Assembly (NCBI GenBank): GCA_012295275.1
Contig: CM022672.1
Span: 11,160,001-11,224,000, forward strand
DNA from: Chrysomallon squamiferum
Lineage: Eukaryota > Animalia > Mollusca
Length of the DNA: 64,000 bases
Direction of reading: 5' to 3'
Below are positions 11,745 to 15,300 of this stretch, one piece after another. The notes under the pieces are model-generated. The model did not search any database, was not told where the DNA came from, and saw nothing but the letters and a program-made list of their open reading frames with translations. The translations under genes were made by a program, and so were the position numbers. Each line of letters begins with the position of its first letter. Position 1 is the first letter of the stretch.

Positions 11745-12355
11745 GTAAGCAACATGTTCATCGATGGCAGATCTTCATTATAAATTTACTGGAAATCCCA
11801 GACCCAAGTCTACGTCTGTGTTCAGAGAAGTTAAAGATCTAAGTCTAACATCTCTAACTATATGGTCAAAGGAGTCAGAGAGAGATAATTTTTACAGACA
11901 TCTGAGAAAGTGTTACGAGAATTAATGACATGGCCTATGAACGACATAATGGATTTAAAGAATTATCTTACATTAATGAAATTAGAAGTGTACAGTACAT
12001 TCAATGATTCATGATCCAGTTTATACTCAGTTTTCCAAGTATTTATGAGGTTAATAATATTATGCAGTTAACAGATAATTTCAAACACCTTTACTGTTGG
12101 CAAGCTCTGTTTATCAATATATCTTTATATGACAAACATTTAGGCAGAAGTGTCATTTGTGGTTAGAAGTAAAAACTGATGATGTGAAGTTTCAGAATCA
12201 TTCCTCTGCATTGCTGTTGACAGTGTTGCAGAATATCTTTCCTGTCTGTAACACATCTTTAGTCAAAATGCCTTGTATGTATGTTTATAAAATTATTCTG
12301 CAGTACTCAGTAGTTTAATTTATTATTAATATTTGCATTTCTTTATTTCAGATTT

Positions 12356-12370
12356 ATGTGCAACAGTTAA
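12356..12370 (+). promoter_or_regulatory. Short uORF (MCNS*) ending 9 nt before the predicted CUG start
   Basis: ATG TGC AAC AGT TAA lies in the exon beginning at 12352, in the same frame as the main ORF. Confidence 0.55.
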
Positions 12371-12379
12371 AACGCAAAT

Positions 12380-15300
12380 CTGGCTTTTCTTCTGGATGGA
12401 AGATATTTAAACTCAGAAGATTCTGAATTTGTTGATCTCATAACTGCAGATATAAAACAATTTTTGGAGAATCCATGTCTTGATCGGTAGATGATGTTTT
12501 GTTACTGAAATTGGAACCAGATAGTAGTAATATATGTGGTGTTTTTTAATAGATAAAATATTAAATTGTTTTGCGATAGAATTTATTCAAATTAGCATGA
12601 CTGATTTTAAAAAAGCTGATGAACACAGCACTTTAGTTTTTAATATTATTATTTTTTTTTTTTAAAATAATAGTATTCACTGTTGTTTTTGAAATGGTGT
12701 GAATTGCTGTTTTGGATAATAAATTTTAAATGAATGTAATGTTTCTTAACAAATGTTTTTGTTTTTGTTTGAAAACAGGGTTCTGTTATTTCCTCCTGTA
12801 AATAATTACCACCGCTTTCTCATACACAACGTAGTTGAAGATTTTGAAGAAGTGAGAAGTTTTTCTGTTGGTGAAGGTTCTGAACGTCGGACTGTTGTCT
12901 GTCTTCAGGACTCATTGAAACGGTACATAGCATATTCTTATTAGACAGAGATGGAATGTTACATTGTAAATATTATTTAATCAAACATGTAACAAATTCA
13001 TACTGTTCATCTTCAATTAATTGTGCTTCAAGTTTTGGCTTTGTATGGTAACAGAGAGTAAAGAATAAAAATTTTACAGAATCCATATTTTGTTGATTTG
13101 TAAATTAAAAAAAAATTTTTTTTAAGAGTTACTTCTTTCCATTTCATAGTGAAAAGAAAAGTTTAAAATTTTATTTTTAAAATATTTTTTCTATATCAGT
13201 TTCAATTATTCCCCAAAAATGAAATTTAAATACAAATATCAAAATATGACTTCCTTTTTCTGTGCAGTGGGCCAAAAGGGCTTGAATTAATGTCATCATC
13301 TGAAAACTGGACATCAAGATGCGGTCGTGGTCGAGCTCGACTTTCACATAAAAGTCAAATTAATTCTGCACCAGGAAGCTCGTTTCAACAGACTGGTGCA
13401 GGAGATGGACATTTCTGTCCAAGTAAAAACACCTGTTCACCAAATGATGCAAGTCAGTTTGGTTACCAGAGGTTAGCTGAACCATCAAAAACTGATCCTT
13501 GTGCAGAGAGTAGTGACAACTCTAGCAGAAGAAAATCTTTAACATCTAGGTGTCTAGTTGAATACTAATATTCATTTTACTTACATGTTGTGTTAATTGT
13601 TATTGAAATTATGATTTTTTTTTTCTTCTTTTATATACTACCATGTTTTTATCTAGTGTATATAATTGTAACCAAAAAGATTATGAAATCTATAATTTCA
13701 ATATACCTTTTAATTGATGCTTAGTTGCATTTTGTGAATTTGAAGAATATAATATTATAGATTTTGTTATTAAGTAATTTGTATAACACAGCAAGGCAAG
13801 ATGCCTAATGAGAGCTAAACATTGGGCTCCTGCAGAAAAAGAAACCACATTGTGTGATCTTTGATCAGTGTAACAATGGAGAGGGTGAATCCATAAATTC
13901 ATGACTTCTTGGGCAAATATTCAAAATATACCCAAAGCTCACTTTACAATATATGTTGATACTGTCCATAAAGTACATGTTAGTTATTAGTACCAGAGAT
14001 ATACTTGCCATTCCTTTCAATTATTTTGAGTTCAGTAAACCAGAAGACAAGCCTTTGCCAATAAAATTTGAATCCAGTTGAATATTTTTGTTTACTTTTT
14101 GATTCTAGGCAAATTAATTTTTTTATCTGCAGAACAAAGACAAAGAAGCCAGAAGTTCAAGTATATGTACCTCCTGCCAAACGCTCACAGCAGCAGCAGC
14201 CGCAGCAACAACCAGAACAAGCACACCAAGATGATTTAAAAGACAAGGATGATACAGAGCATGTTAAACAGTATGCATGTAGTGACACAGGTTCAGTTCC
14301 TCACCTAAAAGATACAGCAGTAGATGAAGCTGGTAAATGTATAGAAAAAACTACTCCAAGAAAGAAAAGCAGGCCAGAAATAAAGAGATATGTGCCAAAA
14401 GGTAAAAGGGAGATCAACATATTGGTGCAGGATGTTTCATCAAATGATAAAGAAAGAGACTCCAAAGGTGAGAAAACAGAAAAACAGTCAACACGAACAA
14501 GACCTGTGAAAAAGTTAAAAATATGTGAAAGCAATGAAGACCATTCTGGTTCAGATCCCAACAGTGAAAACACAAAAAATAATTTAAGTGAATGTGTTAC
14601 TGGTAGGAACATTGATTTAGAAAATGTTGAAGAACCACAAGAAACACCGATGGAGACTGAATCTTGGAGTGATGAAGCAGTTAACATGCAACTAAAATCT
14701 GTGGCCTGTCCTGATTCAAACAGTTTTTCAAATAACCAGTTCTCGTCAACAACAATTAATAATTATTCCAAAAATCTCTTAATGCAAGATAATAAAATTT
14801 CTTCTGAAACAGTTGATGATTCACCAAATTTATCAGGTTTCACTGATGTTGATGATCAAAGTCACAGAGTTTATAATTTAGGCCCTATTGATTCTACTAC
14901 ATGTTCCAAACCACACGCAAAAAAATTAGAATTAACAGAACGACCCAGCAGTGAAACAAATCTTTCTGAATATTTACAAGATCATTTTGGAACTTATACT
15001 TCAGATTCTACCCAAGGATGTAGTAAATCTGAATCATTTAGTTCAGAATATACATTGCAGACAGCAAATAGTGACGAGGAGAAATCAGTACAGTCTAATA
15101 ATGATGTGTCATCTATGACAAAATCACATCCCGATGTATACCAAGATGTAATTGAATATAAACAGACTTTGGACAATTCTGATCCTGTTGATTGTGAAGA
15201 ACCTACTTTCACGTCATCAGTCAATGAATCATCATTGGATATTTCATCAGAGAGAGAATTGGCAAATGAACTGCATACTGATAATAATAATAGCCCCAAC

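Follow-up and report, generated by a model that had tools for sequence, protein, structure and literature searches.

We asked where translation begins in a gene of the R3HCC1 family in Chrysomallon squamiferum, in which the conserved N-terminus lies behind an in-frame stop codon with no ATG between the two. The gene occupies the plus strand of a 64,000-nucleotide window (the whole stretch of DNA analysed, from contig CM022672.1), and all coordinates are positions in that window. Comparison with homologous sequences indicates that the R3H-containing protein very probably starts at CUG 12380. A CUG start of mammalian R3HCC1, to which the sequence-only reading of this locus pointed, is indeed published (Ivanov et al., 2011, PMC3105428; PMC5714202), with non-mammals said to use AUG (PMC3105428). 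Our comparison suggests instead that this start, assigned to mammals alone, probably goes back to the first bilaterians. The elements around the start are as follows.

12356..12370, plus strand: four-codon upstream open reading frame (uORF) reading MCNS and a stop, in frame with the main open reading frame (ORF) and ending 9 nt before the CTG, from the sequence.
12368..12370, plus strand: in-frame TAA, four codons above the CTG, in spliced and genomic contigs.
12380..12382, plus strand: CTG, the likely start codon, with A at -3, G at +4 and C at +5; supported by homologous DNA, protein models and literature.
12396..12410, plus strand: out-of-frame four-codon ORF reading MEDI and a stop, created by an Asp (GAT)-Gly pair, from the sequence.
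13290..13292, plus strand: first in-frame ATG after splicing, at codon 92 and past the R3H domain, from the sequence.

Spliced contigs cover the gene in four runs from two studies (X6 and X8, recorded as RNA; X7 and X9, unlabelled). Rare variants are dropped from such contigs, and partial editing or rare variants may therefore escape them. TAA 12368 and CTG 12380 are covered without a listed difference in all four runs. Contigs from X6, X7 and X9 are identical to the window across both codons, and the X8 contig has one difference within 12352-12485 whose position was not placed. Both codons are also kept in the two genomic runs that cover the exon (X3 and X5). X3 is possibly the source of the window itself; X5 represents a different haplotype, with eight intronic differences and none in exons. 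Together the spliced and genomic runs rule out an assembly error at TAA 12368, and the polymorphism that could have undone the sequence-only reading was not found.

Splicing might have supplied an upstream AUG. The leader and first coding exons are as follows.

11300..11533, plus strand: alternative upstream non-coding exon, with donor 11533 joined to 12352 in X7 and its 5' end further upstream.
11580..11644, plus strand: upstream non-coding exon without ATG, with two donors (11625 and 11644) joined to 12352 in X6 and X8.
12352..12486, plus strand: first coding exon, a 28-nt leader and codons 1-35, from spliced contigs.

Three donors (11533 in X7, 11625 in X6, 11644 in X8) join the common acceptor 12352, whose AG is at 12350-51. 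This acceptor lies above the TAA, so any in-frame AUG further upstream would run into the stop. The ATGs in exon 11300..11533 are out of frame and each is stopped before the junction. No alternative acceptor supplying an AUG occurs among the spliced contigs, and the window sequence has no AG between TAA and CTG. As all three donors join 12352, with TAA and CTG kept, no AUG can open the R3H domain. The spliced mRNA thus has the layout of a near-cognate main ORF, with an upstream in-frame stop and no in-frame AUG before codon 92. Several claims of the sequence-only reading hold on these transcripts: the TAA is in frame with no ATG before the CTG, the CTG has a strong context (A at -3, G at +4), and the first in-frame ATG is at 13290, where initiation would drop the R3H domain.

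We identified 63 homologous loci in metagenome contigs. Exon 1 was placed in 47 of these by a profile omitting the start column and in three more by a second search; 13 loci (on short contigs or divergent) were left out of the counts. The codon homologous to CTG 12380 is ATG in 19 loci and CTG in 10 (14 and 6 distinct sequences). These 29 loci have a purine at -3 in 28 cases (19 of 20 distinct sequences) and G at +4 in every case (20 of 20 distinct). The 19 ATG loci belong to one lineage (best match, protein P0234), in which the ATG is followed by Ala. Nine CTG loci are nearest to cockroach and termite proteins and read AAA CTG GAT. Locus L042, nearest to the window and limpet proteins, reads ACG CTG GCT, with an in-frame TGA six codons above. 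In each of the 6 distinct CTG loci the frame is closed by a stop 6-21 codons upstream, and no in-frame ATG follows that stop. A start codon is classically recognized by just such an exchange, AUG in one lineage at the position of CUG in others. Coding conservation begins at the CTG 12380 codon, with the conserved purine at -3 and G at +4.

No Leu codon other than CTG occurs at the start column among the 29 full-length-type loci, which represent few independent lineages. Free variation among Leu codons in orthologs, named by the sequence-only reading as evidence that would count against it, was thus not found (19 ATG and 10 CTG loci). Its expectation of a fixed CTG fared less well: lineages with ATG at or near the column rule out a CTG fixed in all bilaterians. 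Several lineages with ATG at or near this position support the start site and not its invariance. The start site is conserved and the start codon is not fixed, a pattern explained most simply by an ancestral CUG that turned into AUG repeatedly, in several lineages.

Among AUG-started loci, we also observed an upstream AUG no more than 23 nt from the start in L010, the L012 group, L034, L044 and L051 (one of these an in-frame AUG-stop), and an AUG directly after a TAA, in poor context, in L052 and L053. Low initiation may have been kept after CUG loss in AUG-started lineages.

Protein models extend the pattern to 23 named taxa in eight phyla whose models read through the site (column offset of 9-11 set by hand). 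These comprise chiton, limpet, ribbon worm, priapulid, nematode, scorpion, mayflies, locust, cockroach, moths, mosquitoes, Drosophila tropicalis, crinoid, acorn worm, amphioxus, salmonid, frog, turtles and damselfly. In 22 of the 23, a residue whose codons start with a purine (ambiguous in one case, an Arg) is followed by L (20) or V (2) and then by a residue whose codons start with G (A, D, E or G); the damselfly is the sole exception. An offset-free version of this rule holds for 35 of 39 distinct rows, versus 25 of 229 upstream and 114 of 780 downstream control triplets (11-15%). The 39 rows come from 98 rows with exon 1, after removal of duplicates and of those starting at or below the column; they are related to each other, so the comparison does not amount to a p-value. 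Above position -1 the sequence shows no conservation. Many models through the site are labelled 'partial' (including three of six locust and both mayfly models), begin late or have an unrelated, padded N-terminus. Met occupies the column in models of coelacanth, goby and two pipid frogs, through an AUG or through annotation. In the structure model of the AUG-started homolog P0234, residues 1-98 form one confident domain (predicted local distance difference test score 79 for residues 1-10 and 93-98 for residues 11-90), so the residues from the column onward are structural. Acorn worm and ribbon worm models (P0077 and P0056) have Val at the start column, which suggests GUG starts in these animals.

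Human R3HCC1 uses the same place, in the context ACC CTG GCC (supplement of Ivanov et al., 2011, PMC3105428). Its CUG initiates at ~30% of the level of a Kozak AUG and shows opposite responses to eIF5 and 5MP (Tang et al., 2017, PMC5714202). The human start has reporter support (PMC5714202), ribosome profiling (bioRxiv 2022.05.02.490320) and an N-terminal peptide (PMC8287933). Mammalian R3HCC1 and the window gene share gene family, codon position, Kozak context, the upstream in-frame stop and the out-of-frame AUG at Asp-Gly. The window gene differs in that its CUG is in an invertebrate and in that a conserved in-frame AUG directly follows the R3H domain. It thus departs from the sole-CUG design of mammals: only two weak out-of-frame AUGs precede the conserved in-frame AUG at codon 92. 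The very deep conservation of non-AUG initiation proposed earlier is supported for site and context, found in molluscs, insects and mammals, and not for an unchanging codon.

The column comparison also bears on whether a different near-cognate codon might be used, namely CTG 12392 or ATA 12440 or 12452, all of which are in frame. Hymenopteran-like loci start ~9 codons below the column, and some lineages can therefore do without the first residues. In addition, FlyBase lists CG2162, the fly homolog of the window gene, with an AUC start postulated by its own analysis (PMC4528330, Table S3), and isoform E with this annotated start begins 12 codons below the column. The D. tropicalis model, however, has K-L-E at the column of 12380, and an AUC 12 codons below K-L-E implies that the annotated CG2162 start may itself be misplaced. 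CTG 12392 has C at -3, and the codon that alternates between AUG and CUG, with conserved neighbours, is the one at 12380. We consider initiation at one of these other codons highly improbable, and CUG 12380 remains the preferred start.

The sequence-only reading pointed to two short ORFs, and here only their presence was borne out. The MCNS uORF is in frame and ends 9 nt upstream of the CTG as described. Its ATG 12356 has a weak context (T at -3 and +4), one ATG in a 28-nt leader has a chance of ~46% by local base use, and an in-frame uORF is absent from five of five distinct insect-like CTG loci. Provided that the stretch belongs to an exon, L042 carries an in-frame upstream ORF that stops 15 nt short of its CTG, and MNFEG-type mRNAs all have an upstream AUG within 23 nt. 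ATG 12396, proposed to trap leaky scanners, also has a weak context (T at -3, G at +4). An out-of-frame ATG is also present at this position in L042, in human mRNA and in four distinct AUG-started loci. GAT encodes 60 of the 71 Asp residues of the window gene. Because GAT is the default Asp codon and AUG-started loci share this ATG, a selected trap is unsupported; a role for either the MCNS uORF or ATG 12396 is likewise unsupported.

The uORF could alternatively be the true start: initiation at AUG 12356 would add eight residues if the TAA were passed, either through readthrough or because two A-to-I edits turned TAA into TGG. AUG 12356 is in frame and is the sole AUG of the short-leader mRNAs, and the upstream ORF of L042 offers a possible parallel. 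Coleoid cephalopods edit their RNA heavily, and the window protein is weakly placed among molluscs. Editing would need two changes, however, and no A-to-G difference is listed in the exon in the four runs; UAA-A is a poor readthrough signal. Homologs do not conserve the eight additional residues, and an in-frame upstream AUG is missing from the insect-like CTG loci. Such a start is extremely improbable beside one at CUG 12380.

The second AUG invites a further question, namely whether an R3H-less form is also made. Directly past the R3H domain, at +10 to +16, a Met is present in 13 of 15 mollusc-like proteins (~10% expected; the range was chosen after looking), within an otherwise poorly conserved linker, and L042 also has one. 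Insects have M-G followed by V or I after the R3H domain; in the three loci whose DNA was read, G occupies both -3 and +4. Fly CG2162 isoform A starts at the second-Met position and lacks R3H. The conserved position of this in-frame AUG makes an R3H-less form plausible, and we lean slightly towards some initiation at AUG 13290 producing it. Of the R3H-plus and R3H-minus isoforms proposed in the sequence-only reading, the pair thus gains comparative support and remains only plausible. An alternative acceptor at 12835, inside exon 12779-12922, is joined to the first coding exon in two of four runs (X7 and X9, from one study). Its use removes 56 nt of the R3H domain and stops the CUG frame one codon on, with AUG 13290 intact. 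This acceptor is a possible splicing route for switching off the R3H form.

Taken to its extreme, this evidence could mean that only the AUG 13290 form is made, the R3H exons being relics or yielding no more than traces of protein. The conserved position of AUG 13290 and the frame-breaking acceptor 12835 in two of four runs are compatible with such a gene, as is vertebrate R3HCC1L, which works without an annotated R3H domain (bioRxiv 10.1101/2024.10.29.620958). Both R3H exons are nevertheless intact and 55-75% identical to homologs, the divergent haplotype differs at eight intronic and no exonic sites, and the Kozak signature at 12380 matches eight phyla. We regard an AUG 13290-only gene as very unlikely and favour an R3H-containing protein started at CUG 12380.

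Several observations weigh against a conserved CUG start with a second start at AUG 13290. First, DNA-level CTG outside the window comes from two lineages only, the mutually close L040 group and L042, and CTG makes up 4 of 16 and 8 of 35 other sampled Leu codons in these, so that codon identity alone has a chance of ~6%. The named phyla are known at the amino-acid level only, from rows that are not independent, and exon 1 is lacking in 13 of the 63 loci. Second, many homologs place an ATG near the column: two codons below it in 16 MNFEG-type loci (one of which, L010, has CTG at the column), within one codon of it in L058 and L059, ~9 codons below it in the hymenopteran-like L052, L053 and L057, and near or below it in scallop, several fish and amphibian models. 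Third, no stable hairpin lies just downstream of the CTG (z-scores 0.60 in the window, 0.81 in L040 and -0.47 in L042), which rules out a hairpin-assisted non-AUG start. Fourth, ATG 13290 has a weak context (T at -3 and +4), and its Met is possibly kept for protein function. Finally, no non-bilaterian homolog was identified, so the ancestral codon state is unrooted, and published direct evidence of initiation is for human only.

We propose that scanning 43S complexes would mostly bypass the weak-context uORF AUG, and that a fraction would initiate with Met-tRNAi at CUG 12380 in its strong context. The remaining complexes would leak past two weak out-of-frame AUGs, and some may start at AUG 13290 to give the R3H-less form. 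The stringency of start-codon choice (eIF1, eIF5, 5MP) would then move the CUG share up or down, a dependence measured for human R3HCC1.

The gene belongs to the family named in the sequence-only reading, and its exact identity may differ. In exon 12779-12922 Pfam identifies an R3H domain (PF01424, E 1.6e-12), with no match for exon 1 on its own. Named matches of the window protein are R3HCC1 and R3HCC1L, and the remaining exons complete the family architecture.

12779..12922, plus strand: second coding exon, core of the R3H domain, from spliced contigs and Pfam.
13268..13549, plus strand: third coding exon, from spliced contigs.
14133..15591, plus strand: long exon with a disordered linker, two YVP motifs and a W-x-x-x-F-D-D-x-G-D-C-L motif, from spliced contigs.
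16108-16198, 16822-16903, 17327-17397, 17665-17760, 18307-18447 and 19048-19130 (ending in TAA), plus strand: six predicted C-terminal exons encoding an RRM and a coiled coil.

Codons 1-35 encode the N-terminal hairpin and first helix of the R3H-containing domain (by the homolog model confident over residues 1-98). Of the C-terminal exons, the 16108 junction comes from contig loose ends and the others from GT-AG ends and open frame; the predicted exon model has an open frame of 851 codons (851 amino acids) counted from CTG 12380. Aligned to homologs, these exons reach 64% over 265 columns with the nearest row, supporting the RRM and coiled coil. A homolog structure model shows an RRM and a long helix, with PARN as best Foldseek match (E 5e-4); Pfam RRM matches in homologs are below cut-off. 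The two YVP motifs presumably resemble exon junction complex-binding motifs. The W..F-D-D-G motif is kept in invertebrates and absent from five of five vertebrate R3HCC1 rows, a comparison that included no vertebrate R3HCC1L row.

R3HCC1 and R3HCC1L are listed as paralogs (PMC3595034), and R3HCC1L has only an RRM and coiled coil annotated, with no R3H (bioRxiv 10.1101/2024.10.29.620958). The limpet C-terminal half most resembles chordate R3HCC1L clusters that lack R3H (0.95, 0.94 and 0.91). Vertebrate R3HCC1L (GIDRP88) shares the long linker, RRM and coiled coil of the window gene; unlike it, R3HCC1L has no annotated R3H and resembles the predicted AUG 13290 form. A quick protein tree of 30 of 36 rows (six lacked the RRM anchor) placed the window protein weakly among molluscs. 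The window gene tentatively looks like a single pro-ortholog of vertebrate R3HCC1 and R3HCC1L more than an ortholog of R3HCC1 alone.

Several features lie around the gene. Low-depth contig pieces cover the leader intron at 11609-12325 in spliced runs (retained intron, pre-mRNA or DNA), and X5 and X8 have in common a 14-nt insertion at 12242. A head-to-head neighbour gene occupies the minus strand at 8177-11360, with an apparent start near 11350; the leader with donor 11533 overlaps it in antisense, and its four candidate exons gave no Pfam match. Downstream, a convergent gene on the minus strand has a 219-codon open frame (21677-22336) rich in Arg, Ser and Tyr, also without a Pfam match. We found no homolog among 25 candidate stretches of viral contigs, and two runs of another organism (X10, X11) gave no contigs at 80% likeness and thus no second close species.

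Two known systems are closest beyond mammals. Drosophila CG2162 likewise pairs an R3H form from a non-AUG codon with an R3H-less form from a downstream AUG, but its AUC start is postulated only and lies 12 codons below the conserved column. EIF4G2/NAT1/DAP5 has a near-cognate main-ORF start kept from vertebrates to insects (PMC9977666; FlyBase Table S3). It is an unrelated protein that uses GUG or AUU, and the accessible text of these sources mentions neither repeated replacement by AUG nor a conserved second AUG. R3H is not mentioned in the accessible text of PMC11317171. A literature search, which left most subscription journals outside its reach, found no report of an invertebrate R3HCC1 CUG or of a link between CG2162 and R3HCC1. 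The start is thus known in mammals and, as a bilaterian-wide trait, apparently unreported.

In the literature consulted, few main ORFs keep a near-cognate start between vertebrates and protostomes; EIF4G2 is the standard case, and R3HCC1 would be a second clear one. If true, the published mammal-only assignment would be corrected, and the 'partial', truncated or falsely N-padded gene models of this family across many phyla would be explained. CG2162 would offer a testable case in Drosophila, and CUG and AUG lineages would form a natural experiment at one codon. We tentatively suggest, as a scenario that falls somewhat short of probable, that the last common bilaterian ancestor had one two-start R3HCC1 mRNA (CUG for R3H-plus, AUG for R3H-minus) whose isoform ratio served as a stringency sensor. 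Invertebrates would keep this switch, and lineages that changed CUG to AUG would often dampen the start through an adjacent upstream AUG or poor context. Vertebrate genome duplication would have divided it into a CUG-only R3HCC1 and an R3H-less R3HCC1L, so that what began as two translational isoforms may now be made by two separate vertebrate genes.
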